From positions 10,180 to 74,179 of the forward strand of contig JAEDKA010000008.1 in NCBI GenBank assembly GCA_016296065.1: a stretch of DNA of 64,000 bases, read 5' to 3'. The position numbers were made by a program, and so were the translations under genes. The stretch's first letter is position 1, and each line of letters opens with the position of its first letter. The stretch is from Kiritimatiellia bacterium. GTDB lineage: Bacteria > Verrucomicrobiota > Kiritimatiellia > RFP12 > UBA1067. This document shows positions 11,394-61,174 of this stretch, piece after piece. The notes beneath the pieces were generated by a model. It saw nothing but the letters and a program-made list of their open reading frames with translations, had not been told where the DNA came from and did no database searches.

Positions 11394-11411
11394 CTCCCAC
11401 TTACGGGGGAT
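11394..11411. promoter_or_regulatory. CTCCC-N8-GGGAT variant, 23 nt upstream of the GH97 -10 box
   Basis: ctcccacttacgggggat. Confidence 0.45.
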
Positions 11412-11452
11412 AAGATTTCCCTGGGATGCGAGGCGACAGCCAAGGCAAGCGA

Positions 11453-13471
11453 TCAGTCTTCGTCGGAGGCGTCGGGGTCCTTTAGCTTCACGCCGAGGTC
11501 CCTGAGCCGTATCGTCACCAACTCCTCGGGCGACGGGTCGGCAAGGTCGGTGACGCGCAGGGCCTGGCGCTCCACGGACTTCTCGAACAGGTTCCTAGCC
11601 CAGCGTGCGTTGCCGAAGTTCTTGTCCCGCGTCTCGGTGAGCATCGAGATGTAAGGCAGGAGATAGTGGTCGGCCTGTTCCGAAAGCCTGTATTTCGCCT
11701 TCTTCGCCATCGAGCGATACACCTCCGCCAGTTCCTTCGCGCTGTAGTCGGGAAACTCCACCGTCCTGTTGAACCGGCTTTCAAGCCCGGAGTTGATGGA
11801 CATGAATCGCTTCATCTCCTCCTTGTATCCGGCGATGATAACGACCATCGAGCCGCGCGCGTCCTCCATGCGCTTCAAGAGCGTCGCGACGGCCTCCGCG
11901 CCGTACTGGTCGTTCTCGCCCTGGTTGAGCTGGTAAGCCTCGTCTATGAAGAGGATGCCGCCCATCGCGGAGTCGATGAGCTTGTTCGTCTTCGCGGCCG
12001 TCTGGCCCTCGTACTTCGCGACGAGCCCAGAGCGGTCGGTTTCGACGAAATTCGCGCGGTCCAGCACGCCGAGGGCGCGGAACGCCTTGCCGAGTATGCG
12101 CGCGACGGTCGTCTTGCCGGTGCCGGGATTGCCGGTGAACACGAAGTTGTAGCTCATCGTGACGTTGTTGTCCAGTCCCTTCTCGGCGCGCAACTTGTTC
12201 GCGCGTACGGTCGCGACGAGACGCCGCACCTCGTCCTTCACAGGCTGAAGCCCCACGAGCGCATCGAGCTCCGCAAGCACGTCCTCGATCTTCGGCGCGC
12301 GGATGTCCTCCTTCTTCTCGCCTGCGGAAAGGTCCGCGAGAGCGAGCGTCTTCAGCGCCTCGGCGTCCATGTCACCAGACTCCGCGAGCCGCGTCGCCTG
12401 GCGCGCAGTGGCGTCTTCGAAAAGCTGGCGGACGAACCTGGCGTTGCCGAACGTGCGGTCGCGCTTCGCCGTGAGCTTCGCGATCGCCGCGTCGAGCCCG
12501 GCATCGAGATCCGGAGCGAGCACGAACTCGTTCTTCTTCGCCATCGAGCGGAATATCGCCGCGAGCTCCGGCGCAGTGTAGTCGGCAAATTCTATCGTCT
12601 TGGGGAAGCGGCTCATCAGCCCGGAATTGGCGTCGAGGAAATCGCGCATCTCGTCCGTGTAGCCCGCCGCGATGACGATAAGCTTGTCGCGATCGTCCTC
12701 CATGCGCTTCAGGAGCGTCGCGATCGCCTCCTTGCCGTAGTCGTCGTTTTCTCCGCTCACCAGCTGATACGCCTCGTCGACGAAGAGGATTCCGCCAATC
12801 GCCTCGTCTATCTTCTCGTTCGTCTTGACCGCTGTTTCGCCCGCATAGCGTCCGACGAGCCCTGAGCGGTCCGTCTCAACAAGCTGGCCCGTCTTCGCGA
12901 TTCCGAGCGCGCGGAACGCGCGCGCGACGATGCGCGCGACGGTCGTCTTGCCCGTACCGGGGTTGCCGGTGAAGACCATGTGGTATGTCATCGGCGGAAC
13001 CTTGAGCCCCTGCGCACGGCGCGCTTCGTTGACCTTCGCGAGATTGACGATCTTCTTGACCTCGGACTTCACTTCCTCGAGCCCGACAAGCGAGTCAAGC
13101 TCCGCGAGGACTTCCTCCACCGACTCGACCTGGTTCGTGGACTGCGTATCGCTTTTCGCGCCTTGAGGTCCGTCGTTCGCGACCGGCGGCTCGTCCGTTT
13201 CCGTCGAGTCGAGCGAAATCGGACACACTAGCGCCAACGCCAGGCAGACGAGCATGCCGATCGGTCCTATGAGGACACGCGCCCACTGCGGCGTGCGTTC
13301 GTTGAAGACGGCGATGCGGATGATCCACACCGGGATCGTCATCAGCATCATGTAGATGATCGCGGAAACGGCGCAGTCCTCCGAAAACGCGAGGACGAGC
13401 ACCACGAACAGCGCGACGTCGACCAGACATCCGAATCCGATCGACGCCGCGTTCTTGCCAGATATGTTCAT
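11453..13471 (-). CDS. Membrane-anchored tandem AAA+ ATPase (two CbxX/SpoVK-type modules)
   Basis: 672 aa. 3-4 N-terminal TM helices. Two copies of ..L(A/D)ELD.LVGL..VK.. followed by FTGNPGTGKTTVARI Walker A and ILFVDEAYQL / ILFIDEAYQL Walker B. Confidence 0.8.
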   Translation of the reverse strand: MNISGKNAASIGFGCLVDVALFVVLVLAFSEDCAVSAIIYMMLMTIPVWIIRIAVFNERTPQWARVLIGPIGMLVCLALALVCPISLDSTETDEPPVANDGPQGAKSDTQSTNQVESVEEVLAELDSLVGLEEVKSEVKKIVNLAKVNEARRAQGLKVPPMTYHMVFTGNPGTGKTTVARIVARAFRALGIAKTGQLVETDRSGLVGRYAGETAVKTNEKIDEAIGGILFVDEAYQLVSGENDDYGKEAIATLLKRMEDDRDKLIVIAAGYTDEMRDFLDANSGLMSRFPKTIEFADYTAPELAAIFRSMAKKNEFVLAPDLDAGLDAAIAKLTAKRDRTFGNARFVRQLFEDATARQATRLAESGDMDAEALKTLALADLSAGEKKEDIRAPKIEDVLAELDALVGLQPVKDEVRRLVATVRANKLRAEKGLDNNVTMSYNFVFTGNPGTGKTTVARILGKAFRALGVLDRANFVETDRSGLVAKYEGQTAAKTNKLIDSAMGGILFIDEAYQLNQGENDQYGAEAVATLLKRMEDARGSMVVIIAGYKEEMKRFMSINSGLESRFNRTVEFPDYSAKELAEVYRSMAKKAKYRLSEQADHYLLPYISMLTETRDKNFGNARWARNLFEKSVERQALRVTDLADPSPEELVTIRLRDLGVKLKDPDASDED

Positions 13472-13474
13472 ATG

Positions 13475-14422
13475 TTACGCTGGCTTGGTGGGAAGCTTGA
13501 GCCCGGGCTTAATGCCGGGCTTCGGCGGGAGCTTGAGACCCGTCGGTATGGAGCCCTTCGGCGGAAGCTTGAGCCCTGTCGGCATCGCGCCAGGCTTGGT
13601 GGGAAGCTTAAGGCCTGGCTTGAGGCCGCCCTTCATGCCGGGGAGCGTAGGACGGCGCAGCGCAGTCCCTCCCGGACGCGGCGCGCTGGCAGGAGCGGCA
13701 GGCTTCGCCTCTTCGACGGGCTTGAGCTCCTCAACCGGGGTGAGCTCCTCAAGCGGCGTAAGTTCGGCTACAGGAGTCAGTTCCGCAACCGGCTCGACCG
13801 GCTTGAGCTCCTCGACCGGCGCAAGGGGCTTGACCGGCTTGAGCTCCTCGACAGGCGCGAGGGGCTTGACGGGCTCGACCTTGGGTTCGGACTTGGCGGG
13901 CGCAATCGGAGAAAGCGGGGAAACGGGCTTTGCGACTTCCGCCGGCTTGATGGGCTCAACGGGAGCGACCGGCTTCGGGGTGACCTCGGTCTTGCGCGGA
14001 GTTATAAGCGACGGCGTGTTGGGGCGATGGGCCTCGACGAGCTTCACGACAGTCGGCGCGACCGCCGGGATGGGCTTCGGCGCCGCGGCGTCCGCATCCG
14101 TCATGGGTGCGACGGGATCGCCTGCCTGGAAATCGAAAGACGCAATCTCCATGAGACCGCAGCGAATGGAATCGCCCTTCTCTATTTTCTCCGGGGCCTC
14201 GATCTTGACGCGGTTGCGGTAGGTGCCGTTCGTGCTCCCGAGATCCTCGATATACCAGTCGCCGTCCCTAAAGAAGATGCGCGCATGGTGGCGTGAGAAG
14301 CCATCCACGTTGATGGGCGCAATCGTGTTGCCGATTTCGCGCCCGATTGTTATCACTGCGGACTGGTCAAAGGTGTACCCAAGGTAGATACCCTTGATGT
14401 TTGCGATGAATTGAATCTTCAT
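13475..14422 (-). CDS. FHA-domain protein with long Pro/Lys/Glu-rich repetitive tail
   Basis: FHA core ITIGRE...SRHHARIFFRDGDWYIEDLGSTNGTYRN. Start moved to MKIQF, 10 nt downstream of TGCTATAAT. Stop is 3 nt from the AAA+ start. Confidence 0.8.
   Translation of the reverse strand: MKIQFIANIKGIYLGYTFDQSAVITIGREIGNTIAPINVDGFSRHHARIFFRDGDWYIEDLGSTNGTYRNRVKIEAPEKIEKGDSIRCGLMEIASFDFQAGDPVAPMTDADAAAPKPIPAVAPTVVKLVEAHRPNTPSLITPRKTEVTPKPVAPVEPIKPAEVAKPVSPLSPIAPAKSEPKVEPVKPLAPVEELKPVKPLAPVEELKPVEPVAELTPVAELTPLEELTPVEELKPVEEAKPAAPASAPRPGGTALRRPTLPGMKGGLKPGLKLPTKPGAMPTGLKLPPKGSIPTGLKLPPKPGIKPGLKLPTKPA
13798..13870 (-). repeat. Two tandem ~36-bp coding repeats (KPLAPVEELKPV) in the FHA protein tail. Further GLKLP(P/T)KPG repeats lie at about 13484-13640.
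   Basis: Read directly from the sequence and from the translation. Confidence 0.7.
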
Positions 14423-42190: not shown

Positions 42191-42232
42191 CAGAGCCGCA
42201 GCCCTGCACCATACCCCTTTTGGGGCATTGGG

Positions 42233-44731: not shown

Positions 44732-44798
44732 AACCCCGCCGCCAAACGCACTAACCCAAATGGGGGGCGGCAACCGAGGAAAGTTGCGCAATAAGGCG

Positions 44799-46464: not shown

Positions 46465-46482
46465 ATCCCCCCATGAAGGGAT
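46465..46482. promoter_or_regulatory. ATCCC-N8-GGGAT inverted repeat, 22 nt upstream of the GH39 -10 box
   Basis: atccccccatgaagggat. Confidence 0.55.
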
Positions 46483-47087: not shown

Positions 47088-48319
47088 TTCGCCTCCTCCG
47101 ACGGACCTTCCATCTCCGCCAGCTTTTCGTTCATTCCCCAAAGCCTCTTGCGCAGGAGATCCTGCGTGTACACAAGCCAGTGCTGCACCTTGCCGATCTG
47201 CTCCTTAGCCTTATCGTCGTCGCGTCCGAGCCATTCGGCCGCAGCCTCGAGGCGGAACTGGCAACTCCCCAGGAGCTGCTGGAAATCGTCGTGCAGCTCA
47301 TAGCTGAGGCGAAGCCGCTCGCGCCTGATCGCCTCGAACTCCAGCTTCTCCAGCTGCTTCTCCCGCTGCGTGAGCTTCAGCTTCATCGAAACCAGCGCGA
47401 GGACAACGGCGATAGCCGCGAGCAGCAGCCAGACGCGCCCCGCAGTCCAGAACGGCGCCTTGGAAAGAACCTCGACGCCGTTTATGTCCATTGGCATCAC
47501 GCTGACGTCGGTGAAGTCGGTCATAACGTGCCGCACCGGATCGTCCACCGGCGAATATAGCATGACGCCCCCGACCAGAACCTTCGCGCCGAGCTTGAGG
47601 TCGTCTGGCAGCGGAGTGTCGATGTTGATCCGCACTGCGGACTGAAAGCTCCTGTTCCCCTCTCCGAGCTGAATCTGCGTGAACGTCTGGCGTCTGTTGA
47701 TGTCGCGCACCGTACCTGCGCATCGCACCATCCGCCCCCACAGATCGTCCGCGCCGGGAACCGTGAGCGGATGCGAATAAAGGTCCGCAATCGTCACGTC
47801 CTTCGGGCGCGGCAGATCCGCCGCTACGTCCTTCAGCTCTGCGACATAAGCGTGGTTGACGCGCCGCGTTGTGTACGTCGCGCGTGACTCCCCGTTCGTC
47901 ACCGAGACAACCGTGCCGACCTTGTAGGCGAAGGCGTCCTTCTCGCGCTCGATGCGCCATGTTCCCGAGCCGTCCGTCGCGGACATGAAGAAATACCTGT
48001 CCCCCGGACGCGAAAAGGTGACTACGCCGTCGAGCGGCAGCTCATGCGCCGAGTTCTGCCTGTAGCCATTCACTTCCCCTGAAAAAACACTCACCGCAAG
48101 CAGAACAAAAAACAAAGACACGACAAAATGACTGGGGGAAGCGGCGTCCCGCCGCTTAGCATCACCACCCTGACTGGGGGAAGCGGCGTCCCGCCGCTTA
48201 GCATGCAAACACGAAACACCACCCTGACTGGGGGAAGCGGCGTCCCGCCGCTTCATGCCAAAAGAAAAAAAGACTCTTTCCCGAAGCGGCGAGACGCCGC
48301 TTCCCCCAGTCATATTCAT
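47084..48319 (-). CDS. Membrane sensor with periplasmic domain and HisKA_3 (DHp) domain but no recognisable ATPase domain. Start is uncertain (ATG 48319/48313 or GTG 48120).
   Basis: TM - ~270-aa extracytoplasmic region - TM - coiled coil - SYELHDDFQQLL H-box. The protein ends ~65 aa later. The 5' 200 nt is made of hairpin repeats. Confidence 0.6.
   Translation of the reverse strand: MNMTGGSGVSPLRERVFFSFGMKRRDAASPSQGGVSCLHAKRRDAASPSQGGDAKRRDAASPSHFVVSLFFVLLAVSVFSGEVNGYRQNSAHELPLDGVVTFSRPGDRYFFMSATDGSGTWRIEREKDAFAYKVGTVVSVTNGESRATYTTRRVNHAYVAELKDVAADLPRPKDVTIADLYSHPLTVPGADDLWGRMVRCAGTVRDINRRQTFTQIQLGEGNRSFQSAVRINIDTPLPDDLKLGAKVLVGGVMLYSPVDDPVRHVMTDFTDVSVMPMDINGVEVLSKAPFWTAGRVWLLLAAIAVVLALVSMKLKLTQREKQLEKLEFEAIRRERLRLSYELHDDFQQLLGSCQFRLEAAAEWLGRDDDKAKEQIGKVQHWLVYTQDLLRKRLWGMNEKLAEMEGPSEEAK
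48129..48312. repeat. Cluster of four 29-nt hairpin units TGACTGGGGGAAGCGGCGTCCCGCCGCTT. Three are direct (48129, 48171, 48225) and one is inverted (ends 48312). The last two form an 88-bp inverted-repeat (MITE-like) element.
   Basis: Read directly from the sequence. Confidence 0.8.
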
Positions 48320-48353
48320 GCAACTTTGCTGTGCTGTTTTTTTCACAAGATCA

Positions 48354-48362
48354 ATTATATCA
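48354..48362 (-). promoter_or_regulatory. Extended -10 TGATATAAT whose TGA is the lyase stop codon. Promoter of the sensor/regulator pair.
   Basis: Read directly from the sequence. Confidence 0.5.
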
Positions 48363-50846
48363 TTTCGGACGGTATTCATCCACCACCCTCCCATTGCGAT
48401 ATGCAACCACCGAAAACCCTGTTTTCGTCGAATGGATGATTTCATCGCTGCGATTATTGTTCCTGTAGCGCACCGTCACCTTCACGCCTTCAGGATCGCC
48501 CTTGAGCGGTTCGCTCGCAACGCTTTCTATCATCGCGTCGACACCCTCTCCGCTCGGCTCGTACACGGCGACGAACGGACGCCGCCATGCTTCGCCTTTT
48601 TGCCGCACAAGAAACGCAGGGCACGGCTTTTCGGAGACTCTGCGGTCGTAGTGGCGGAAAGCCTTCGGCCCTTCCAGCGCATACGCCTCGCGTCCCTCGC
48701 CGCCGTTCGCGACAAACGCACGCATCACGATGCCGCCGCCATAGTCGAAGTCCGCGGTGAAATCGCCGCGCATAGTCCCAAGCGTCTTGAAATATCCGTA
48801 CCCCTTCCCGCTCTGCGGATCCAGGCTGCCCGTTCCCCATTTCCCGTCCCCGGCCCCCCAATCTCCCAGGCAATGGAATATGTAGTCGTGATACTTCTCG
48901 TCTCCCTCGATCACCTTCGAGCGGAAGATGTCGACATAGTAGCCCGTCTTCGATCCGCTGCGCACGATCGCGACCGTGCGGCGCTGGCGAGCCTTCACGT
49001 TCCCTGTGTCACATAGGCTTTCGACGTCGACAAACTGGCGATGCGGCGAGAGCGAGGCGCACACGTCTTCGCCTGCTTTTACGGACGGCTCTGCGGCCTT
49101 TATGTCGAAGACCATCTCGCGGCGATCGTCGAGTCCGAGTCCGTTTACCGCGACCGTGTTGTGCGCCGCTACCTGGCGATAGTATTCGTGCGTGTCGGCG
49201 GACCAGTAGTTCGCACCCGCGCCGGTATCGGGCGCAAGTATTTCGCCTCGTCCGTAAAGCTCGACGGAAAGTCCGTTCGGATGCCTGTGCCCCATCTTAT
49301 CCGAAAAGCCTGCGAGCGAGAACGCGAGCGCATCCGCCGCGTCGCCGCTCTTCGACGGATTGCGCGCCAGAATCACCGGATAGCACGGCGCGTAAGAGAC
49401 GCGGGACAGCTTCGGCGGGGCGACCTGCGGGAGTTCCGAAAGATAGAAAAAGAACGCGATGTCGTCCTTCGCGCTACGACCGCCGGCGAGGCTGACGAGT
49501 CCGGCGCAGCGTTCGAGCAATTCGCGATCTCCCTTCGCGTGCGCATAGGCGGCCATCAGCTCCAGCTGATCCGTGAAGATGCGGTGGTAGGACGAGTCGC
49601 CGATGTTCGTGACGTATCCGTTCGGGAAGATCATCTGCGGCATTGCGCGAGATGCCTTGAAGAGAAGCGGATCGCGCGAGAGAACGTCGAGTCCGTTCTT
49701 CCAGTACAGAAAGCCGAACTTGACGAGCTGCGCTATCGAGCCCTGGCCGTATCCGCCCGGCGCCTCGGGCCACATTCCGGTCGACTCCTCGATGTTCGCA
49801 CGAAGGACGTCGATGTACGCGCCGTGGCGCTCTGTCGTCGGACCTTTCACGAGCCTGCGGACGTAATACTTGCGCCCCTTGCCGTCCGCATATGTCCTGT
49901 CGTCGTCGAGCGCCAGCGCATAGAGCATTGCGCTTTGCTGTTCGTTGAGGTTCCAGTTGCCGACAAGTCCGCCGCCGCGCGTCAATTTGTTGTCGATGAA
50001 CTTCTTGAAGAAAACCTCGAACTGGCGCGAAGCCCACGCCGCGCCTTCGGGGTGGCCCGGACACCACGTCTCGCCCGGAATGCCCCCCGTGAATTCCTTG
50101 CTTGTGAAATACGTATTCTGGAAATAATCGTACAGCATATCCCAGACGAGCGGAATCGTCCAGTAGCGACGCGTGTCGCCCAGAGTCTCCCACGAAAGGA
50201 ATCCGCAGTTGTCGACAGCACCGGGATTGATCTCCTCCTGTTGCGCACCGCCGCGCACGAGCGTCCAGACGATGTCGGCGGCGAACTTCGCATAGCGCGC
50301 ATCGCTTTCCAGCGCATAGAGAATCGCCGATTTGTAGGCGAGGTCGAGAAGCTTTTCGTTTATCAGTTCGGCGGCCATTCCGGAATGCTCGAGCGGCACT
50401 AGGTTGCCGGGGAACTCCGTCGGCTTGTCATTGAGAAACACACCGTCGTCTGTCGTATATGGCGGATTCTTCTCCCATGCGACGCTGCGATAGGGACAGT
50501 CCCCCCATGTACGCGCGTAGGCGACGCGGATCGTCGGATACTTCGCGTTCCCTTCGCGACGCGGGATGAAGTTGCCCTGCGTCCACGCCTTTGTGTAGCG
50601 TCGCCCTTCCATCCAGTTCATCTGAAGACGGCTCGGCGCGAAACTCGGATCGTCCGCATGGCGCAAGACCGCAGAATCTACGTCTCGATGCCAGCGCTTG
50701 ACGATATCACGCGCCCACGCAACATCCTGCGCCTTCTCGCGCAGTGACGGCAGCTCGCCCGCGCGAAAATATACGCACGGATGGCGGCTTTCTGCGAACG
50801 CGCCCCAAATCGCCACGCAGGCGAACATAGCGGTGACAAACTTCAT
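48360..50846 (-). CDS. Heparinase II/III-family polysaccharide lyase, secreted
   Basis: 828 aa. Signal peptide. GHRHPNGLSVELYGRGEILAPDTG...AHNTVAVNG block typical of Hepar_II_III. ATG is 6 nt downstream of TGATATACT. Confidence 0.7.
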   Translation of the reverse strand: MKFVTAMFACVAIWGAFAESRHPCVYFRAGELPSLREKAQDVAWARDIVKRWHRDVDSAVLRHADDPSFAPSRLQMNWMEGRRYTKAWTQGNFIPRREGNAKYPTIRVAYARTWGDCPYRSVAWEKNPPYTTDDGVFLNDKPTEFPGNLVPLEHSGMAAELINEKLLDLAYKSAILYALESDARYAKFAADIVWTLVRGGAQQEEINPGAVDNCGFLSWETLGDTRRYWTIPLVWDMLYDYFQNTYFTSKEFTGGIPGETWCPGHPEGAAWASRQFEVFFKKFIDNKLTRGGGLVGNWNLNEQQSAMLYALALDDDRTYADGKGRKYYVRRLVKGPTTERHGAYIDVLRANIEESTGMWPEAPGGYGQGSIAQLVKFGFLYWKNGLDVLSRDPLLFKASRAMPQMIFPNGYVTNIGDSSYHRIFTDQLELMAAYAHAKGDRELLERCAGLVSLAGGRSAKDDIAFFFYLSELPQVAPPKLSRVSYAPCYPVILARNPSKSGDAADALAFSLAGFSDKMGHRHPNGLSVELYGRGEILAPDTGAGANYWSADTHEYYRQVAAHNTVAVNGLGLDDRREMVFDIKAAEPSVKAGEDVCASLSPHRQFVDVESLCDTGNVKARQRRTVAIVRSGSKTGYYVDIFRSKVIEGDEKYHDYIFHCLGDWGAGDGKWGTGSLDPQSGKGYGYFKTLGTMRGDFTADFDYGGGIVMRAFVANGGEGREAYALEGPKAFRHYDRRVSEKPCPAFLVRQKGEAWRRPFVAVYEPSGEGVDAMIESVASEPLKGDPEGVKVTVRYRNNNRSDEIIHSTKTGFSVVAYRNGRVVDEYRPK

Positions 50847-50852
50847 GCCTAA

Positions 50853-50880: not shown

Positions 50881-50898
50881 ATCCCCCCGTGGGGGGAG
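50881..50898. promoter_or_regulatory. ATCCC-N8-GGGAG inverted repeat, 22 nt upstream of the lyase -10 box
   Basis: atccccccgtggggggag. Confidence 0.55.
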
Positions 50899-51612: not shown

Positions 51613-53904
51613 TCAGCGGATGATTACGGTCAATCCCGGCTTGACAAAATACGCCGTGAGAACCTTTACGCCGCCATCACCCGCAACCAACTTCGTCCGC
51701 CATGCACCACTTGCAGAAGGTTTGTCTACAACGACCTTCGCCCTGCCGGACGAACCGCTCCCGGCCGTAAGGATCGTGTATTCCTGAGCTGTGTCCAGTT
51801 CGCCCGTCAGCTTCACCGTCAAGTTGGCGACATCGACATCTGTCTCGAATGTCGGCGTGTTTTCCGCTTCGGCCGCGATTTCGACGCACGATCCCGCCTC
51901 GAACGTCGCGCCTTGCGTCGCCGTGAAGCTGCCTGCGAGCGCGCCATGCTCCTTGACGGTGATAGGAACCTTGATAGTGCCGGCCCCCCCAAGGACGGCG
52001 TTCGTGACGATGATTGCCGTTCCCGCAGTGAACTCGGCGGAATCGATGTTGAGCCGTCCGCCCTGCACCGTCGTCGTGCCGCCGTAGACGTGGTTCGTAC
52101 CCGTGAGCGTCCACGTACCGTCGCCGACCTTGACGAGCGAAGTCTTCGTGCCACTCGTCTTTGTCTCATACTGGCGGATGTTGGCCGCAAACGTGCCATC
52201 CTTTCCGAGCGCGCCGACCTCCAACGTGAGGCCGTCCTTGTAGGTACGCAATTCTGAGTTGGTGTAGGCAAGGGCATCTTCCGTCCCCGTGACAAGGTGG
52301 CCGATCCTGAAGACGGTGCCAGCCGTATTCTCCTTGGCGGCAATGTAAAGGAAATTGCGTGCACTCTCTTCCTTGTTCGTCATCACGACAGTTGCATTTA
52401 CGAGAGAGGCCTTTCCGTCCGTAAAGTTGTTGGCGCGCTCCATGTAAACGCCCTTCCAATCCTGCGAACCATCATGCGCATACTCCACATAGAGCGTCCC
52501 CGTGAAATCCGACGTATCTCCGTTCAGGTAGATGGAGGGATGATGTCCGTTGCCGATACATAGTTCACCGTCGCCGAGAATCTTGCCCGTCAACGTAACC
52601 TTTATGTTATCACCCGCATTAGGATCGAAGTTAAGCTTGTTGCCTTTTCCGTATACGTAGATGTCCTGACTCCACGTCCCGTAATCATAGGAAGTGGGGT
52701 TGGTTGTTGCGAACTCGACCCTCGCCCCTTCCGTGAGCGTCACATCACCTGAGCCGAACTGCTTGGGGCTGCGTACGCGCAGCGACACATTTGAGAATAC
52801 CGTCCCGCCTGTATGATAGTTATCGCCCCCCCAAAACTGAACGTTGTCTTTTCCGGTCGTTATGTATTTCAGATTTCCGCCCAACCGACCGAGATAGTTG
52901 CACTTCGCATCACCCCCGAAAACGCCCGCCGTCATTGTCGAAAGCATTGCGTCCACGGAATTGGTTATCATCACGATGTTATCGCCGGAACTCGGAACTC
53001 GCGTCATGGAGCCGATTGTCAGATCATGGCCGTTGAGATCTATCGTCGTGTTTGCGTTGACTTTGATATTCAGATAATGCGTGTCCTTCTCCAGCGTCAA
53101 CTTACCGCCTTCCTCCAGCGTTAGTTCACCCGTCCACACAGGGAAACTCGCCGCGATCCTCGAAATCTGCTCTGCCGTCAACGTCTGGCCGTAGAAACGG
53201 ACATCGTCGAAATAGTTGCTCTTGTTTTCCGTCAAACCTGTCTGTCGGACTCCTCCATTTACGCTGCCGAATTGCCAATGCCCTTCGGCAAGGTCGCTCG
53301 TTATTTCCGAGGCAAGAGGTGTGCCGCCATCGTTCACCAACACACCATCCACATACAGTTTCACATTCTTGTCCTTGTCCATGGTTACGGCGTAGAAATG
53401 ATAGGCGCTTTCGGCATTGGCGACATCTGCTGTGACAAGATCGGCATGTGCGGCATTCGTCCAGAACGGCGATACCGTCACTTTGCCCGCACCGCCGGAT
53501 GCAAGCGCGATGCCACGCGTCTTGGAACCATCGCTGTTGGCGTTGCCGAGTGTAAAGATGGCTCCATTGTCCGTCGAGTTGACCTTGGCCACGACACACA
53601 GCGTCCACTCGAATGCAACGGCAGACTTGACTCCGTTGCCGTAATCGGTATGGCTCGTTATCGCACAGCCTCCCTGCGTCAACGCCCATGTATCGCTGCA
53701 TCTGTTTGTCTCTGGCGAAGCAGAGCCGTAGTTCACCGCATCACAATCGAATTTCCACCATACAACAGGAACGATTCCGTTCTCGTCTTCCTGGTTCTGA
53801 CCTATTGCCAGAGCTCCGCCGAGTGCGGTGCCTCCCGAAAAAAGCGTCAGTGCAGCCAGTATTGGAAAGATTGATCCGGTTTTCATCTTCGATAGTCCTT
53901 TCAT
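51613..53904 (-). CDS. Large secreted protein: LamG/concanavalin-like domain plus autotransporter-associated beta-strand (PATR) repeats
   Basis: Signal peptide. HFYAVTMDKDKNVKLYVDGVLV...DDVRFYGQ (LamG-like). VGDGTWTLTGTNHVYGGTTTVQGGRLNI (PATR-like). Confidence 0.65.
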   Translation of the reverse strand: MKGLSKMKTGSIFPILAALTLFSGGTALGGALAIGQNQEDENGIVPVVWWKFDCDAVNYGSASPETNRCSDTWALTQGGCAITSHTDYGNGVKSAVAFEWTLCVVAKVNSTDNGAIFTLGNANSDGSKTRGIALASGGAGKVTVSPFWTNAAHADLVTADVANAESAYHFYAVTMDKDKNVKLYVDGVLVNDGGTPLASEITSDLAEGHWQFGSVNGGVRQTGLTENKSNYFDDVRFYGQTLTAEQISRIAASFPVWTGELTLEEGGKLTLEKDTHYLNIKVNANTTIDLNGHDLTIGSMTRVPSSGDNIVMITNSVDAMLSTMTAGVFGGDAKCNYLGRLGGNLKYITTGKDNVQFWGGDNYHTGGTVFSNVSLRVRSPKQFGSGDVTLTEGARVEFATTNPTSYDYGTWSQDIYVYGKGNKLNFDPNAGDNIKVTLTGKILGDGELCIGNGHHPSIYLNGDTSDFTGTLYVEYAHDGSQDWKGVYMERANNFTDGKASLVNATVVMTNKEESARNFLYIAAKENTAGTVFRIGHLVTGTEDALAYTNSELRTYKDGLTLEVGALGKDGTFAANIRQYETKTSGTKTSLVKVGDGTWTLTGTNHVYGGTTTVQGGRLNIDSAEFTAGTAIIVTNAVLGGAGTIKVPITVKEHGALAGSFTATQGATFEAGSCVEIAAEAENTPTFETDVDVANLTVKLTGELDTAQEYTILTAGSGSSGRAKVVVDKPSASGAWRTKLVAGDGGVKVLTAYFVKPGLTVIIR

Positions 53905-53946: not shown

Positions 53947-53964
53947 ATCCCTTGATGGGGGGAT
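53947..53964. promoter_or_regulatory. ATCCC-N8-GGGAT inverted repeat, 22 nt upstream of the TAAAAT -10 box of the PATR protein gene
   Basis: atcccttgatggggggat. Confidence 0.55.
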
Positions 53965-53987: not shown

Positions 53988-56483
53988 TCAGGGTTCTTCT
54001 TCATGCAGAATCAGCGAAAGCCTGTACTTGCGTCCGGAATGGACGCGAAACTGCGGCAGCGCTCTGGCATGCGCACTCCATGAATCGTCACCGCCCACGC
54101 CCATCTGTGCCGCGTCGATATTTACGGTAAGCGTTCCGTCAGGCTCCGGCAGTTCCTCGACATGACGCGCATGCTCAAGGTCCTGCTGCGTCCACGGCCA
54201 GACATTGAAGCCAAAGGACGAGCCATCCGCCGCTTCAACAACCAGCGTGCCGATTTCAAGTCGTGTCGTCTCCGTCCTGTATCCCTGCTCGCCGGGAATG
54301 ACATAGTTGTTGGGATTGAGCTCCGCTACGCTCATCTGCCATTCGCCGACATTCGTCGCCGCCCTGCGGTCGCAGTAGTTCTCCCACGGCCCGCGCCCCC
54401 TCCAGCGCACCAAGGTGTTCGTGCCGCCGCAAACGCGGAAAGTCAGCCCCGCGCGGGGTATGTCCGGCAATCCCTCCGCCGCGACGAACAGCCATTCGAC
54501 CTTCAAGGATCCATCTGGCAGCTCCTGCGTCGCGATATCGCTTGTGCAACCATCGGGGACTTTCCCCGTTTCGGTCGCATTCTTCCATATCCTGCAGACG
54601 CTCGGCATCTTCCAGCCCCTGTCGTTGTCCGTGGGCGCGCGATAGAAGTTCGGCTTGAACACGATGTCCCCGATCTGCCGGTCTGCGTGCGTGCCGCGGA
54701 GAGATGCGGACTGCCTCAGCGTCGCACCAGGCGCATTCGGCAGGGAAAGCGAACAGGCTCCGAGATTCAGCGCCCGTGCTTCCAGCGCAGAACCGTGCGG
54801 ACGGCGGAAGGCGTCGAAAATCCCGTTGCAGCAGAAGCCGCCGTCATTGGGACTGTCGCCGAAATCGCCGCCGTACTTCAGGTTCCCGTCTGCTCCGAGA
54901 AGCGCCTGATCTGCAAAATCCCAGATGAATCCGCCTTGATAATGCCGGTTTCTCGCGACAAGCTCCCAGTGCGATTCCTGCGAACCGCCCGCATTGCCCA
55001 TCGCATGGAGATATTCACACTGGACAAGCGGCTTCGGCGGCGCGTTCGTCACATATCCCTCGCACCTCGCCGCCGGCCAGTACATCGGAGCCAGAATGTC
55101 CGAATAGGGCACCGGCCTGTCTGTTGAATACTGAACCGGACGGGATTCGTCTATAGACTTGATCGCGTCATATTCAGCCTGAAGATTCTCGCCCTCCCAG
55201 CATTCGTTTCCGAGACTCCAGAAATAAATCGACGGATGATGACGGTAGGTCTTCACCATATTGACGCCTCGCTCCACGAAAGAACCGCGCCATTCCTTTC
55301 GGCAGGCGAGCGACCGACGCGCGTTCCCCTGCCCGGAGCCGTGACACTCCACATTGGCCTCGCAGACAAGCAACAGCCCGTATTTGTCGCACAGGCGATA
55401 CCAGTACGAGTCGTTCGGATAGTGACAAGTCCTTACCGCATTGAACCCATATTCTTTTATGAGTCTGACATCGCGCTCCATCTCCTCATGCGTGACCGCA
55501 TAGCCGCCGCGGGGGGACATCTCGTGCCGGTTGACCCCCCTGACAACGAGCCTCTCGCCATTCACGTAAACAACAGAATTTGAAATGGCGATGTCGCGGT
55601 ATCCGTCCGCCCATGCATACCAGTCGCCGTTTGCGGACTGCCAGGTGCGGACATAGAGCTTCGGGTTCTCCGGAGACCATTTCTCCGGATCCGCAACCGG
55701 CGGCAGATGTGCAGCGTCTCTGACATCGTGCGGCGTGTCGAGACCTTCCGCCTGAAGCCACACGTCGCGATAGATGCCGGAGAGCCTCCAGAAATCCTGA
55801 TCCTCCAGATACGAGCCGTCGCACCATCGATAGACAGAGACCTCGACAAGGTTTCCGCTCTTGTCCAGGTAAGGCGTGACGTCGAACTCCGCAGGCATGC
55901 GCGAATCCTCCGCATAGCCGACCTCTCGCCCGTTCATACGCAGAAAGAACGCCGAGGCGACGCCATTGAATCTCATGACGATGCGACGGCCTTTCCATCG
56001 GTCCGGCAACTTGAACGTGCGGCGATACACGCCAAGCGGATTTCGGTAGACGTACTGCGTGAAATTCGTCGGGGGATCCTCCATGATGTGCGGCGGATTG
56101 TTGACATGCGGGTATGTGTAGTTTGTGTAGATCGGGGGATCGTAATCGCCCTGTAGCTGCCAACATCCGGGCACGGCGATCCTGCCTCGCCTGACCGCGG
56201 CGGAGTCCGGTCTCGCCCGCCACTCGAATTCCCAATCGCCGTTCAACGACATGACATAAGGCGAATCTTCACGGGGTCTCTCGAGATTTGCCCACGCTCT
56301 GGCCGCAGTCTCGTTCGCGAACGGCACAAGCTCATCACGCGGAGCAAGAGTGTTGACGCGACTGACCGCCGGATCCTCCCAACAAGGAATTGCCGCTGTC
56401 TGTGCGCTGTTCGCCGCATCTCCAGCAGCAACCAGAACGCTTGCGAGGCCGATGAACGCTGTCTTTTTTAACAATCCTTTCAT
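53988..56483 (-). CDS. Glycoside hydrolase family 2 beta-galactosidase, secreted
   Basis: SLNGDWEFEW, NAVRTCHYPNDSYWYRLCDKYGLLLVCEANVECHG, FWSLGNE, CEYLHAMGN blocks. Confidence 0.85.
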   Translation of the reverse strand: MKGLLKKTAFIGLASVLVAAGDAANSAQTAAIPCWEDPAVSRVNTLAPRDELVPFANETAARAWANLERPREDSPYVMSLNGDWEFEWRARPDSAAVRRGRIAVPGCWQLQGDYDPPIYTNYTYPHVNNPPHIMEDPPTNFTQYVYRNPLGVYRRTFKLPDRWKGRRIVMRFNGVASAFFLRMNGREVGYAEDSRMPAEFDVTPYLDKSGNLVEVSVYRWCDGSYLEDQDFWRLSGIYRDVWLQAEGLDTPHDVRDAAHLPPVADPEKWSPENPKLYVRTWQSANGDWYAWADGYRDIAISNSVVYVNGERLVVRGVNRHEMSPRGGYAVTHEEMERDVRLIKEYGFNAVRTCHYPNDSYWYRLCDKYGLLLVCEANVECHGSGQGNARRSLACRKEWRGSFVERGVNMVKTYRHHPSIYFWSLGNECWEGENLQAEYDAIKSIDESRPVQYSTDRPVPYSDILAPMYWPAARCEGYVTNAPPKPLVQCEYLHAMGNAGGSQESHWELVARNRHYQGGFIWDFADQALLGADGNLKYGGDFGDSPNDGGFCCNGIFDAFRRPHGSALEARALNLGACSLSLPNAPGATLRQSASLRGTHADRQIGDIVFKPNFYRAPTDNDRGWKMPSVCRIWKNATETGKVPDGCTSDIATQELPDGSLKVEWLFVAAEGLPDIPRAGLTFRVCGGTNTLVRWRGRGPWENYCDRRAATNVGEWQMSVAELNPNNYVIPGEQGYRTETTRLEIGTLVVEAADGSSFGFNVWPWTQQDLEHARHVEELPEPDGTLTVNIDAAQMGVGGDDSWSAHARALPQFRVHSGRKYRLSLILHEEEP

Positions 56484-56525
56484 AAGTTTACGCCACTATT
56501 TTACACCCGGCTTTGCAGTTGTGCC

Positions 56526-56543
56526 ATCCCTTGATGGGGGGAG
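56526..56543. promoter_or_regulatory. ATCCC-N8-GGGAG inverted repeat, 22 nt upstream of the TAAAAT -10 box of the GH2 gene
   Basis: atcccttgatggggggag. Confidence 0.55.
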
Positions 56544-56545
56544 AC

Positions 56546-56573
56546 GGCGGTTTCATCGAAACCGCCCTACCAT
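56546..56573. repeat. 28-nt element GGCGGTTTCATCGAAACCGCCCTACCAT, copy 2, abutting the hipA stop codon
   Basis: Identical to 51531-51558. Confidence 0.8.
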
Positions 56574-58137: not shown

Positions 58138-58887
58138 CTATAAGGTCAATACTACCTCTGCCACATTCGCGGAAAAAGCGGGTATGATGAGGCTGGAAGC
58201 CGTGAACTCAAGTTCGCGTATCGCAACGGTGTCTGGCGATTCCATTGTGTTCTTCGCATCAAGCGCGATTTCGACGCTCTCCCCTTTTTCAAGACGCCTG
58301 TTGACGTCGATAGTTTCATCGGCGGTAGCGAGAGGATAGCGCGCAATCTCGCGATAGAAGTTGAACTTTGCGTCACGGCCGCAACCGGCATCATGACTGG
58401 GGGAAGCGGCGTCTCGCCGCTTTTCACAACAAGGGAGACTTCCTTTTTGACGAAGCGGCGGGACGCCGCTTCCCCCAGTCAAAGCTCCTCCGTCAATCAA
58501 ATCCACCCGACTTGAGACTTCCACTCTCCACACGAGCTGCTTCATTGACTCCTCGGGTTTGATCCAGGGTCCGCCGCAGGCGGAATATCCAGGCGAGTTG
58601 TGGAGCGAAAGCTCCATCCCGAGTCGCTTCGCCTCGCGGCTCGCCCATGCGACGCAGTCCTTCCACTCCGCGCTCGCGTAGTCCGCCTTGCCGCGCTTCG
58701 CTCCGATGCCGACGTCGAAGATCATCGCCGCCTGGATCCCGCCCGCTTTCATGTACTCCAGGTCGGCGGTGATGCCATCTTTGGAGATATTGCCGTTCAT
58801 CCAGTGCCAGTAGCAGTCGGTCATGACTTCCGAAAACGAAGTCATGGAGAGCGCCACACCGCAGACAACCGCATATAATTTCTTCAT
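58138..58887 (-). pseudogene. Truncated GH106-like (rhamnosidase-family TIM-barrel) glycosidase N-terminal fragment carrying an in-frame 88-bp hairpin-repeat insertion
   Basis: YWHWMNGNISKDGITADLEYMKAGGI...SPGYSACGGPWIKPEESMKQLVW matches N-termini of ~1000-aa enzymes, but the ORF stops after 249 aa at the hipB operator. Repeat at 58394-58481. Confidence 0.5.
58394..58481. repeat. Second 88-bp copy of the same inverted-repeat element (29-nt arms, 30-nt spacer), inside the GH106-like ORF
   Basis: Read directly from the sequence. Confidence 0.8.
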
Positions 58888-58893
58888 GCGACC

Positions 58894-58899
58894 ATTATA
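58894..58899 (-). promoter_or_regulatory. -10 TATAAT, 6 nt before ATG 58887 (GH106-like fragment)
   Basis: Read directly from the sequence. Confidence 0.55.
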
Positions 58900-58921: not shown

Positions 58922-58939
58922 ATCCCCCTATGAAGGGAT
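58922..58939. promoter_or_regulatory. ATCCC-N8-GGGAT inverted repeat, 22 nt upstream of the -10 box of the GH106-like fragment
   Basis: atccccctatgaagggat. Confidence 0.55.
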
Positions 58940-58992: not shown

Positions 58993-61119
58993 TTAAAGCT
59001 CCACAAGCCCGTCACCGGCTTTGCCTTCGACGCGCTTCATGGTTCCGTCCGGAAGCTTCAGAGCAGCGGAGAAGTCGTCGCCCTGCCATTCAAGGTTTTC
59101 GAGAACGATTCCGCCGCGCAGCAGCAGTCCCTTTATCGAGCCCGACTTCCACTCCGTCGGCTTCGCCGGGAGAAAGCGCACATAGCCTTCCTCGGAATGG
59201 ACGAGCATTTCGGAGATGAGATACGGATATCCGCCGGAGATGTCGGTGTTGAAGCAGTTCTTCCAGTCGTGGCACGAGCCGCCGCCCCTGAGCCAGTTCT
59301 TTTCCGTGAGTAGCTTGAGGCACCGCGCCGCGCGCGCGGCATCGCCGATCTTGCACGCGGCGAGTCCGTTCTGCACGTACCCAAACGCCATCGTGCGCGA
59401 ACGGTTCTCATTGAAGTCCATGCGCGCGTCGATCGTCTTTCCGACGGCCGCGACGAGCGCGGCGTTCGTGAGGATCTCCGCCGGCGCGTCGTCGTAGAGT
59501 GCGTAGAGATGAGAGGCGTGGCGATGCTCGTTGTTGTCCGGCTGCCCCGGCGCGAGCCACTCGGCGAAGAATCCGTTTTCGCTAACCCGGTACGGCGTGA
59601 GGCGTGCGCGCAGCGCGGACCATTTGCCGCGATCCTCCGCGTCAACACCAAGCGCCTCCGCCGCGTGCGCGACCTCGCCGAGGAACTGCTTGGCGATGGC
59701 GACATCCATCGTCGCGTTTACCGCCGTCGGACGCTTCCCCCACGGCCAGTTCTCGGGCGAATAGGACGGATTGAACCCGAGCGTTCCGTCCGGCATTTCC
59801 TTAAGGACGTCCTCGTAGTACTGCGCGACTTCCTTCATGAGCGGATAGATGCGCTTCAGCCACGCAACATCGCGCGTGTGGCGGTATCCGTCGTAGAGAC
59901 GCGAGAGAAGCCACGCCGCGCCGCCGTGCCAGTAGACGTGCGGATAGTTCGCGTTCGAATCGGTCTCCACTCCTGAAACCGTAGTCTGCGCGGCGGCGCG
60001 GAATCCACGCGCGCCGAAGTGACGCCTCGCCGCGTCGCGCATTTCGGGAAGCCGCGCCTCGATCCACTTGAGAAGGCTTTCGTTGAACTCCGGCGTGTTG
60101 CCGCGGCAGAAGAAGGAAATCGCGCACGGAAGGTTCCCGTTCACGGTGAAGCTCGCGAACCAAGGCGCGCTCCAGGTTCCGGCCCACAGTCCCTGGAGGT
60201 TCGGCACGTGGTCGCCTCCAACGGAAGAAATGATGTTGTACCTTCCGGAATTGAAGTTGCGCACGATCTCCGCCGCGTTCGCCGGGCCTTCGAGAGCGAA
60301 CGACACACGGCCCATGAGCTCCTTCTGCTTTGCGGCGCTTTCTGCCAGAAGCGCATCATACCCCTTCTCCGCCGCAGCCGCAAGATGCGCCTCCATCGCC
60401 GCGCGATTGGAAGTCTGTCCCTTCAGCAGCGGTTCTATCGCCACATAAACCTCGGAAATCTTTGCGTCCTTTGCGTTCTTTGCGGCTAACAGCAAAACCT
60501 CATACCCCGCGAGCTTGTTCCACGGGTTCGCGTTCCTGAACTCGCAGCGATAGTAGTCAGGCTCCGAAACGATGCGGCAAATCCCCTTCGCGAACGCGGA
60601 AATATCCATCCTTCCTGAAGGCGCGATTCCGGCGAGCGCAAACGAGGCATCACCCTTCGTCTCGTCATTCACCTTGACGGCGATGATGTTCGCACCGCGC
60701 AGCGCGACGACGCGGCGCTCGTAGCGGCGTCCCTTGCCGTCCTTCGCAAGAACGATGCATTCGCCAGTATCGAAGTCCGTCCGACGCGAATATTCGACAG
60801 GCTTGCCGAACCGCATTGATATCTTGAGGTCGCACGCGGCCATGAATCCGTCGCGGTTGTTGTAGTCGCCTGGATTGCGGCGCGGATGATTGACGAGCGC
60901 GGGCGGCGTGTCGCCCGGTTCGGGAAGATACAGCTTGCAGTGGCTGAGATGGATCGCTTCATCTTCGATCCGCCCCTCGACCATTGCCCCGATCGTGCCG
61001 TTGCCGGTCAGCAGCGACTCCTGCCAGTTGGCGGCAGACGCGTGCTCGATCAATTCCGCGCCGCCAGACGCGCAAGCCACGACGGCCACAGCGCACAAAG
61101 CAAAGAATCTCGTTCTCAT
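58993..61119 (-). CDS. GH95-like (alpha/alpha)6 glycosidase (fucosidase/galactosidase family), secreted
   Basis: 708 aa. Signal peptide. NLQGLWAGTWSAPWFASFTVNGNL resembles the GH95 LQGIWN...PPW...NIN block. Confidence 0.5.
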   Translation of the reverse strand: MRTRFFALCAVAVVACASGGAELIEHASAANWQESLLTGNGTIGAMVEGRIEDEAIHLSHCKLYLPEPGDTPPALVNHPRRNPGDYNNRDGFMAACDLKISMRFGKPVEYSRRTDFDTGECIVLAKDGKGRRYERRVVALRGANIIAVKVNDETKGDASFALAGIAPSGRMDISAFAKGICRIVSEPDYYRCEFRNANPWNKLAGYEVLLLAAKNAKDAKISEVYVAIEPLLKGQTSNRAAMEAHLAAAAEKGYDALLAESAAKQKELMGRVSFALEGPANAAEIVRNFNSGRYNIISSVGGDHVPNLQGLWAGTWSAPWFASFTVNGNLPCAISFFCRGNTPEFNESLLKWIEARLPEMRDAARRHFGARGFRAAAQTTVSGVETDSNANYPHVYWHGGAAWLLSRLYDGYRHTRDVAWLKRIYPLMKEVAQYYEDVLKEMPDGTLGFNPSYSPENWPWGKRPTAVNATMDVAIAKQFLGEVAHAAEALGVDAEDRGKWSALRARLTPYRVSENGFFAEWLAPGQPDNNEHRHASHLYALYDDAPAEILTNAALVAAVGKTIDARMDFNENRSRTMAFGYVQNGLAACKIGDAARAARCLKLLTEKNWLRGGGSCHDWKNCFNTDISGGYPYLISEMLVHSEEGYVRFLPAKPTEWKSGSIKGLLLRGGIVLENLEWQGDDFSAALKLPDGTMKRVEGKAGDGLVEL

Positions 61120-61125
61120 GGCATG

Positions 61126-61134
61126 ATTCTACCA
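61126..61134 (-). promoter_or_regulatory. Extended -10 TGGTAGAAT, 6 nt before the GH95-like ATG 61119
   Basis: Read directly from the sequence. Confidence 0.6.
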
Positions 61135-61153
61135 CAAACCACCTGCGCACGCC

Positions 61154-61174
61154 ATCCCTCATCTGGGGGGGGAT
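61154..61174. promoter_or_regulatory. ATCCC-N11-GGGAT variant, proximal half-site 22 nt upstream of the GH95-like -10 box
   Basis: atccctcatctggggggggat. Confidence 0.45.

Follow-up and report, generated by a model that had tools for sequence, protein, structure and literature searches.

A phased TCCC-N8-GGGA palindrome at promoters of exported glycan-enzyme genes in Kiritimatiellia, a candidate operator of a NarL-type response regulator

The subject of this work is a short inverted repeat in a 64,000-nucleotide stretch of DNA from a Kiritimatiellia bacterium (contig JAEDKA010000008.1 of assembly GCA_016296065.1, positions 10,180 to 74,179 of the forward strand), hereafter called the window. 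The GC content of the window is 62.5%, 94% of it is coding, and nearly all genes lie on the minus strand. A housekeeping gene block occupies 13-41 kb. The Pfam matches comprise GH31, GH81, GH97, two GH43 proteins, GH39, GH2, GH95, a GH106 fragment, HipA, a heparinase II/III-like lyase, a PATR/LamG protein, a HisKA_3 kinase and a REC-GerE response regulator, which agrees with the gene names given in an earlier note on this DNA. That note had described an 18-base-pair (bp) inverted repeat at a fixed place in front of several carbohydrate-active enzyme (CAZyme) genes. Read on the coding (minus) strand, the canonical layout is [A/C]TCCC-N8-GGGAT, then 22 nucleotides (nt), then a -10 hexamer. The sites of the window, with the scores of a position weight matrix (PWM) where available, are the following.

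46465..46482, minus strand: putative operator palindrome ATCCCTTCATGGGGGGAT, GH39 promoter (PWM 26.2)
50881..50898, minus strand: putative operator palindrome CTCCCCCCACGGGGGGAT, heparinase II/III-like lyase promoter (PWM 18.3)
53947..53964, minus strand: putative operator palindrome ATCCCCCCATCAAGGGAT, PATR/LamG protein promoter (PWM 25.1)
56526..56543, minus strand: putative operator palindrome CTCCCCCCATCAAGGGAT, GH2 promoter (PWM 22.1)
58922..58939, minus strand: putative operator palindrome ATCCCTTCATAGGGGGAT, promoter of the truncated GH106 gene (PWM 26.2)
11394..11411, minus strand: putative operator of subtype B, ATCCCCCGTAAGTGGGAG, GH97 promoter (PWM 16.1)
61154..61174, minus strand: N11 variant ATCCCCCCCCAGATGAGGGAT, GH95 promoter
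42211..42228, minus strand: variant palindrome ATGCCCCAAAAGGGGTAT, promoter of GH43a (gene 41192-42172; PWM 11.9)
44751..44768, minus strand: degenerate palindrome (C)GCCCCCCATTTGGGTTA, promoter of GH43b (gene 42233-44716; below the PWM threshold)
2411..2439, minus strand: long C-run/G-run palindrome upstream of GH31

The GH39 palindrome shares its first base with the stop codon of the response-regulator gene; downstream of it come 22 nt, TATAAT (46442-46437), 6 nt and an ATG at 46430. The same arrangement is seen at the lyase gene with TATACT (50858-50853) and an ATG at 50846, at the GH106 gene with TATAAT (58899-58894) and an ATG at 58887, and at GH95, where the N11 variant stands 22 nt from TAGAAT (61131-61126), again 6 nt before the ATG (61119). 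At the PATR and GH2 genes the 22-nt gap leads to TAAAAT (53924-53919 and 56503-56498, respectively). The GH97 site lies 35 kb from the main cluster, has an imperfect proximal half-site (GGGAG) and is separated by 23 nt from TATAAT (11370-11365), with 6 nt to the ATG at 11358. The two GH43 palindromes are also 23 nt from a TATAAT box, at 42187-42182 (GH43a) and at 44728-44723 (GH43b, then 6 nt and the ATG). The GH31 palindrome is 19 nt from TACAAT and is a strong potential hairpin; its membership of the family is uncertain, and it may be a different element. All coordinates given for these sites in the earlier note hold, and so do the N8 repeat at 23 nt (GH97), the N11 variant at 22 nt (GH95) and the looser C-run/G-run palindromes at GH31, GH43a and GH43b. 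Its list of five "exact" ATCCC-N8-GGGAT repeats needs a correction, i.e. the 22-nt gap is found in all five, and the perfect sequence in only three, the distal half-site of the lyase and GH2 copies being CTCCC.

It is conspicuous that PATR (53883-53963) and GH2 (56462-56542) share an 81-nt promoter cassette with 81% identity, which runs from the palindrome and spacer through the TAAAAT box and a short leader into the first codons. Because of this duplication the two promoters are not independent cases. A third copy of the cassette is found before a PATR-like gene in a related locus (L082, around 6419; related loci are given L numbers throughout).

The consensus of the sites is ATCCC-yyCATGrr-GGGAT with the invariant core TCCC-N8-GGGA. 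The core occurs seven times in the window against an expectation of 1.06, a number that none of 100 shuffles reached, and six of the seven copies belong to promoters, where a TATAAT-like -10 box follows after 22-23 nt. Six sites score at least 16 with the PWM, and all of them are non-coding (P about 6e-8). The canonical motif is present at 6/10 promoters of CAZymes or exported proteins versus 0/11 other recognisable promoters of the window (Fisher P=0.004). Its absence from the cysS, metF and dnaB promoters, reported before, was confirmed; elsewhere in the window, including the greA-like, rseP and FHA regions, no site with a score of at least 14 was found. Likewise, no palindrome was seen at the promoter of the 2-keto-3-deoxy-6-phosphogluconate (KDPG) aldolase/PfkB-type kinase genes or at that of the divergent Peripla_BP_3 gene.

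The distribution of the motif outside the window was investigated in a pooled sample of 42 Kiritimatiellia-like loci (375 kb), which yielded 35 near-unique sites. Every one of these has a -10-like hexamer 21-23 nt downstream (5, 15 and 15 sites at 21, 22 and 23 nt, respectively), as compared to 1.6% of random positions. In other words, the motif-to-TATAAT distance, whose distribution the earlier note had proposed to measure, is fixed and not random. The site is also conserved before the orthologs of GH39, lyase, PATR and GH97. The closest GH39 proteins are metagenomic (90% identity), with named Kiritimatiellia metagenome-assembled genomes (MAGs) matching at 66%, and in the contigs carrying GH39 orthologs the palindrome precedes GH39, lyase and PATR genes at 21-23 nt from the -10 box. 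The GH39 site is kept in L001, L011, L051, L058, L080 and L005, the lyase site in L001, L004 and L066, and the PATR site in L001, L004 and L005/L064; this footprint includes a relative with 53% GC (L004). The GH97 orthologs, collected from JGI metagenomes by protein similarity alone, keep the subtype ATCCC-nnnAAAGTGGGA at 22-23 nt (61-92% protein identity), and their loci contain extra sites before adjoining GH43, GH39-like and PATR-like genes. Conservation in orthologous promoters thus reaches down to about 60% protein identity.

The genes upstream of the site differ. In the window the GH39 copy begins at the stop codon of the regulator gene, in L005 the site is 125 nt downstream of the stop codon of an unrelated Ser/Thr kinase gene, and in L017 one palindrome lies between two divergent -10 boxes (TATAAT), at 21 and 23 nt. 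Since the upstream context differs between these loci, the site tracks the promoter and not the upstream gene. Moreover, 27 of 54 strong leaderless promoters have the core, and each of these stands before a gene for a protein with a signal peptide or membrane anchor, versus 16/27 of those without it (P=1.4e-4). A strict form of the promoter pattern was scanned over 185,579 species genomes, one genome per species, a collection that does not include the source species; it gave 56 matches, about 50 being expected by our estimate, and only five of these are true relatives (L011, L051, L058, L060 and L017). As the scan is near chance and yields only these five, the architecture is restricted to one clade.

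Several side observations from the related loci deserve mention. The L017 contig (CAVJWR010000033.1, around 3880-3990) is labelled Limosilactobacillus gorillae, has 56% GC and carries a Kiritimatiellia-type kinase-regulator operon orthologous to that of L060; it is probably a bin contamination. CTAGA-rich tracts (tctagaattctagaatcctag...) immediately precede the palindrome at the lyase and PATR promoters of several relatives (L001 around 5750-5783, L066 around 4060-4099 and 11530-11569, L004 around 14-42), in contrast to the window copies, which have none; a second regulatory element is one possible reading, an insulator rich in stop codons another. In five Bacteroidales MAGs (L016, L034, L037, L038, L042), ATCCCAT-N4-ATGGGAT is followed at 22-23 nt by TATAAT, N6 and ATG. 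The palindrome precedes a gene for a 209-amino-acid NarL-type regulator that is 29% identical to that of the window, and it lies between this gene and that of an approximately 1070-amino-acid Reg_prop/Y_Y_Y HisKA_3 kinase. The architecture is repeated here in another phylum, one whose promoters are not normally of the TATAAT type, and we regard it as a lead and not as evidence.

The genes that follow the sites in the window, i.e. the putative members of a regulon, are listed below; the assignments are from Pfam.

44799..46430, minus strand: GH39 gene with signal peptide, putative regulon member
48360..50846, minus strand: heparinase II/III-like lyase gene, putative regulon member
51613..53904, minus strand: PATR/LamG surface protein gene, putative regulon member
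53988..56483, minus strand: GH2 gene, putative regulon member
58138..58887, minus strand: truncated GH106 gene, putative regulon member
9706..11358, minus strand: GH97 gene behind the subtype-B site, putative regulon member
58993..61119, minus strand: GH95 gene behind the N11 variant, possible regulon member

A second conspicuous property of these promoters is the short distance between the -10 box and the start codon. Most motif promoters read TATAAT-N6/7-ATG, and the housekeeping genes dnaB, metF and cysS are arranged likewise with N6-N8. Such TATAAT-N6-8-ATG segments are found at 46428-46442, 50844-50858, 58885-58899, 11356-11370, 61117-61131, 44714-44728, 33384-33398 and 41072-41087, and other genes of the window have normal GGAG leaders. 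In 23/35 motif promoters the A of the ATG is the seventh nucleotide after the -10 box. A transcription start at this distance would put +1 at the A of the ATG, therefore the mRNAs are probably leaderless, and leaderless mRNAs are probably widespread in this Kiritimatiellia lineage, for CAZyme and housekeeping genes alike. With start sites predicted in this way, the 18-bp site would span about -52 to -35 and be centred at -43.5; the location of about -35 to -52 proposed earlier agrees with the 21-23 nt spacing. We note that leaderless starts matter for gene calling, as start codons are mis-called in public predictions. An exact-protein look-up of the window GH39 gave no match; the public gene call is a longer open reading frame (ORF), with 555 amino acids versus the 543 that follow from the leaderless ATG.

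A consensus scan found no TTGACA-like -35 element at the motif promoters of the window, where the -35 sequences read TGGCGG, TGGGAG and TTTGCG; GH2 alone among them gave a match (ATGGCA, 9/12). The claim that these promoters lack such an element is thereby borne out. The motif promoters have a good -10 box, often with a TG upstream.

The palindrome behaves as a DNA sequence and not as an RNA structure. Positions T2, C3, C5, G14, G16 and A17 are invariant in 19 sites and nearly so in 32 unique sites. In contrast, the inner three pairs are unpaired in 7-10 of the 19 sites, i.e. in about half of them, and the covariation is not above that of shuffles (0.116 vs 0.123 in the 19 sites). Relative to the gene, the asymmetric inner TT/AA bases are found in either orientation, as expected for a symmetric protein dimer on DNA. 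The distance to the -10 box is fixed, in contrast to that between the site and the upstream stop codon, which lies anywhere between 0 and about 125 nt. No copy has a T-run after the palindrome, and none was classed as terminator-like; terminators picked up in other phyla by the genome scan (e.g. TCCCGC...GCGGGATTTTTT) provide the contrast. The fold energies of the copies relative to shuffles are inconsistent (z from -4.5 to +0.6), the PATR site being the extreme case (-19.7 kcal/mol, z=-4.5), and Rfam gave no matches in the window. We therefore rejected an intrinsic terminator, given the lack of a T-run and a position unrelated to the upstream gene end, and also a structured RNA element, given the lack of covariation and Rfam matches and the often unpaired inner positions. 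A dispersed repeat of the repetitive extragenic palindrome (REP) or miniature inverted-repeat transposable element (MITE) type does not fit either, since spacers and flanks differ between the copies, except in the 81-nt PATR/GH2 duplication.

In addition, a separate hairpin-forming sequence, GGTAGGGCGGTTTCGATGAAACCGCC, occurs twice on the minus strand of the window, around 56545-56570 and around 51530-51560. The first copy is a distinct GC hairpin immediately upstream of the GH2 palindrome. The second overlaps the start of an ORF of 133 amino acids that has no Pfam match and has homologues in L001, L051, L077 and L081.

The most plausible candidate for the protein that reads the site is encoded within the cluster itself, by one of two genes (kinase and regulator) that come after the lyase gene.

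46482..47087, minus strand: NarL/FixJ-type response regulator (REC + GerE helix-turn-helix), candidate binder (Pfam)
47084..48346 or 48445 (start codon uncertain), minus strand: HisKA_3 sensor kinase (Pfam)

The nearest solved homologues of the regulator are VraR, DesR, NarL and DevR (DevR in PDB: E=3e-16). Its phospho-acceptor residues are intact, with Asp54 and Lys104 conserved. The kinase has two transmembrane segments and a periplasmic domain of about 220 amino acids, and its stop codon overlaps the ATG of the regulator gene. It ends right after the DHp domain, without HATPase_c, and so does its ortholog in L001 (8340-9383); the orthologs in L064, L004 and L066 have 482-491 amino acids and contain HATPase_c. 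The truncation is not a sequencing error, because it is common to the window and to the 90-95% identical relative L001. As a further peculiarity, the 5' part of the kinase ORF of the window (around 48100-48330, minus strand) encodes three copies of KRRDAASPSQGG before the first membrane segment. Neither the L001 nor the L064 ortholog has these copies, and Tandem Repeats Finder called no tandem DNA repeat in this region.

Five lineages show synteny of the kinase and regulator genes with PATR, lyase, GH39 and GH95, namely the window, L001, L004, L005/L064 (GCA_051884805.1) and L066 (GCA_002449695.1), at regulator identities of 53-98%, and in all five the pair is inside or adjoining a motif-headed operon. 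In the L005/L064 locus only two sites are present in about 31 kb, and these head the two operons of that very cluster, GH39-GH95/GH2-GH3-GH43 and PATR-lyase-kinase-regulator. The corresponding genes of the window are distributed over a larger number of transcription units, and every unit has a site of its own, as a cluster-specific regulator predicts. Paralogous pairs show a similar linkage. In L060 and L017 a palindrome located 23 nt from the -10 box heads a paralogous kinase-regulator operon. In L072 the gene of a regulator with 48% identity is followed by ACCCCCGAAAAGGGGGAT, 22 nt, TATACT and GH43, with a similar second site after it. In L079 the order is kinase-regulator pair, palindrome, GH97 ortholog. 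The GH43a palindrome of the window is like those beside the L072 system, and this resemblance of the window GH43 palindromes to the L072 type suggests that they may be read by paralogous regulators encoded elsewhere in the genome. Not all members of the regulator family are linked to the site, since a 50%-identical regulator in L070 belongs to a type II secretion pseudopilin operon with no motif nearby. A comparison of the recognition helices of orthologs and paralogs gave no clean specificity code.

Of the three candidate binders named in the earlier note, the NarL-type regulator thus gains support from synteny and paralogs; for the OmpR-type regulator (16740-17396) and the XylR-like protein (63198 onwards) we saw no evidence of a link to the site, and neither was followed further. 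Another locus is worth recording here. In L065 (8765-10620, GCA_965350295.1) the regulator ortholog is shortened at its N-terminus (182 amino acids, 88% identity) and immediately preceded by an IS110 transposase, the kinase and lyase genes are missing, and the downstream palindrome has a degenerate distal half, GTACCTTTTTCGGGGGAT. This looks like the decay of the two-component system.

We consider it very probable that the palindrome is a protein-binding promoter operator. The earlier proposal of a dimeric-protein site at polysaccharide-degradation genes agrees with the computed spacing, conservation and association with exported proteins. It is reasonably likely that the operator activates rather than represses, and the chances are somewhat better than even that its binder is a NarL-type regulator. 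The combined reading, a class II operator of a NarL-type response regulator that would activate genes of exported glycan enzymes, is one that we favour by a narrow balance of probability. According to this proposal a NarL/FixJ-family dimer, with the regulator at 46482-47087 as leading candidate, would bind both half-sites, and paralogous regulators are candidates for the variant palindromes. The bound dimer would then recruit RNA polymerase by way of sigma region 4 and the C-terminal domain of alpha (class II), and activation would be tied by the membrane kinase to a signal in the periplasm, presumably a product of glycan breakdown. Four features of class II NarL/FixJ operators, i.e. a short inverted repeat, a fixed register, a poor -35 and a linked regulator gene, are all found here, and class II activation is favoured because the geometry and the G/C-triplet half-sites match the DosR and lux-box precedents.

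A number of observations weigh against this proposal. The partner kinase lacks an ATPase domain, therefore canonical phosphorylation is doubtful in the window lineage. Autoregulation is not required, since in L001, L064 and L072 the kinase gene is preceded by a leaderless promoter of its own that lacks the motif, and there is no two-component system near GH97 in the window. The regulator orthologs of L004 and L066 have Ser in place of the window Lys in the recognition helix, with the half-sites of L004 unchanged. The N11 variant at GH95 is a poor fit to a rigid dimer, and a single box is found per promoter here versus the at least two needed at DevR promoters (PMC3177182). A TGn extended -10 is present at several promoters, above all those of the GH97 type; these could be active without an activator, so that repression is conceivable too. 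Finally, the PWM was built from promoter sites, and the sampled loci are enriched for CAZyme clusters.

The proposal of a NarL-type class II operator can be carried further, with due caution. Tentatively, the palindrome may be the common cis element of paralogous HisKA_3/NarL systems that together form a glycan-sensing network of gut and rumen Kiritimatiellia, which would correspond in this lineage to the regulators of polysaccharide utilization in Bacteroidota. In each unit of such a network, TCCC-N8-GGGA at -43.5 would be combined with a strong -10 box and leaderless initiation, and the specificity of the paralogs would be set by the 8-bp centre and by the 22- versus 23-nt register. With a kinase devoid of an ATPase domain, the window lineage would then have to signal in a non-canonical way, for example by phosphorylation in trans or with a sensor that acts as a phosphatase only.

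Among the rival explanations, the one that survives best, as a rather unlikely possibility, is an operator bound by an unlinked global regulator of another family (e.g. CRP/FNR-like, or a lineage-specific factor in charge of all exported CAZymes), the neighbouring two-component systems being incidental. The core is common to promoters beside at least three paralogous two-component systems and is present at GH97, which has no such system nearby, and the sites are well kept in the window lineage despite its truncated kinase. Also, the half-site separation of about 12 bp is larger than that of the NarL 7-2-7 site. Against this explanation stand the synteny in five lineages, the three paralogous systems with a palindrome at or beside their own genes, and the fact that the only two sites of L005/L064 head the operons of the cluster that contains the two-component genes. 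Moreover, the centre of the palindrome is CATG-like at GH39, lyase and PATR and AAAGT at GH97, i.e. the subtypes follow gene families, so paralogous regulators fit better than a single factor, and no other transcription-factor gene is consistently linked.

Somewhat less probable still is a repressor operator, in which the same regulator or another protein at -35 to -52 would block polymerase on promoters made intrinsically active by a strong or extended -10, until the inducing glycan relieves the block. Many motif promoters, especially of the GH97 type, share the TGGTATAAT extended -10 with the motif-less dnaB, metF and cysS promoters, and a kinase without ATPase domain could act as a phosphatase or leave the regulator unphosphorylated, both of which would suit a repressor. 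Nevertheless, a phasing of +/-1 bp to the -10 box is typical of activators that touch the polymerase, and usual repressor sites are placed more freely, often overlapping the -10 box or the start. The GH39 promoter has neither a -35 nor an extended -10 TG, and the family precedents at this position (DosR, LuxR) are activators.

We think it improbable that the palindrome is a core-promoter element read by the polymerase itself, such as a -35- or UP-like element out of its usual place, or a sequence recognised by an alternative sigma factor dedicated to exported CAZymes. In its favour, the proximal half is slightly better kept (T18 in 25/32 sites versus A1 in 21/32), and the N11 variant keeps this half in register with the -10 box. 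The 22-nt gap, however, is outside the 16-18 nt range of sigma-70-family -35 elements, the -10 box is TATAAT as at housekeeping genes, the dyad symmetry points to a dimeric protein, and the distal TCCC is as invariant as the proximal GGGA. A sigma-70-type -35 or an UP element was likewise discarded as a candidate for the motif, which is G/C-rich, dyad-symmetric and 21-23 nt away from the -10 box. The weakest explanation, an RNA or DNA hairpin (a terminator without U-tract, an insulator or a 3' stem-loop) brought close to promoters by a compact genome, has in its favour that some copies such as the PATR site can fold and that the GH39 copy begins at the upstream stop codon, and we hold it to be very improbable in view of the structural evidence given above, the fixed distance to the -10 box, the site between divergent promoters and the separate hairpin that precedes the GH2 copy.

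Some neighbouring genes bear on the history and the likely substrate of the cluster. The GH106 gene matches only the first approximately 110 of 743 profile positions, and a hipA toxin-kinase gene (56573-57784) adjoins it, which suggests that an insertion disrupted GH106; the same hipA is 99% identical in L080 (3688-4896), in a different CAZyme context. The GH2 of L066 (366-2792) is 97.5% identical to that of the window and its GH95 84%, far above the 53-59% identity of the neighbouring regulator, kinase and lyase, and this difference points to a recent exchange of single CAZyme genes between lineages. Next to the cluster lie the KDPG aldolase and PfkB-type kinase genes (61283-63140, minus strand), the kinase being similar to 2-keto-3-deoxygluconate (KDG) kinases, with the Peripla_BP_3 protein ("XylR-like", 63198-64000, plus strand) as divergent neighbour. 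The aldolase and the KDG-like kinase fit a catabolism of unsaturated uronates released by the lyase.

In rumen, hindgut and sediments, Kiritimatiellia are abundant degraders of complex glycans, and hardly any of them has been cultured. If the proposal of a NarL-type operator is true, a fixed-geometry operator would predict co-regulated glycan-degradation regulons directly from MAGs, two-component sensors could be assigned to enzyme sets, and electrophoretic mobility shift assays (EMSA), DNA affinity purification sequencing (DAP-seq) and reporters could be designed without a cultured strain. A literature search on Kiritimatiellota promoters, operators and CAZyme regulators and on the motif found nothing relevant, so the operator is apparently undescribed so far.

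Its resemblance to known systems is nevertheless considerable. The E. coli NarL 7-2-7 site is TACYYMT-N2-AKRRGTA, and the NarL family pairs with HisKA_3 kinases. The order of the site, C-run first and G-run second, is the same as here, and the recognition helix of the window regulator has the T-V-K-x-H-x-K pattern of NarL. The GH43a variant, read as ATACCCCTTTTGGGGCAT, comes close to a 7-2-7 site. It is the only one to do so: NarL half-sites correspond to ACCC-N6-GGGT and those of the main motif, ATCCC-N8-GGGAT, to TCCC-N8-GGGA, i.e. they are 2 bp further apart, and we did not assign the main motif to the 7-2-7 type. Also, NarL sites vary in position and arrangement at promoters, whereas the position is fixed here. 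A functional parallel is offered by the regulators of Bacteroidota polysaccharide utilization loci (PULs), i.e. hybrid two-component systems, SusR and extracytoplasmic function (ECF) sigma/anti-sigma pairs, which are encoded in the cluster, respond to glycans and switch on exported CAZymes. They differ in protein families (the hybrid systems have AraC-type domains), DNA sites and promoter types, and SusC/SusD genes are not present here.

Closer in geometry are the lux and tra boxes of LuxR and TraR, inverted repeats of 18-20 bp bound by GerE-type dimers at about -42.5; the lux box has 20 bp, is centred at -42.5, overlaps the -35 region and requires both arms (PMC3376562). These proteins have a ligand domain for acyl-homoserine lactones and no phosphorylated receiver, and the DNA sequence is unrelated. 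The geometry is also matched by DosR/DevR, a NarL-family regulator of Mycobacterium tuberculosis. Among the hypoxic promoters of this bacterium, that of hspX combines a consensus -10 with a suboptimal -35. The DosR box is centred there at -43.5, and polymerase is recruited by contacts of DosR with sigma region 4 and the C-terminal domain of alpha (PMC13486717); the C-terminal domain of DevR reads GGGACT in each palindrome half, and DevR promoters need at least two boxes (PMC3177182). In both cases there is a palindrome for a GerE response-regulator dimer, in ours a predicted one, with its centre at about -43.5, a G/C triplet in each half-site and a poor -35. The differences are equally clear. 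The Dev box has 20 bp and reads GGGAC...GTCCC, and the present site has 18 bp with an 8-bp centre, the reversed order TCCC...GGGA and one box per promoter; its targets are exported CAZymes with probably leaderless mRNAs in a bacterium of the PVC group. The principle, an operator of a response-regulator-type activator, is thus a known one, of which the palindrome described here would be a new instance.

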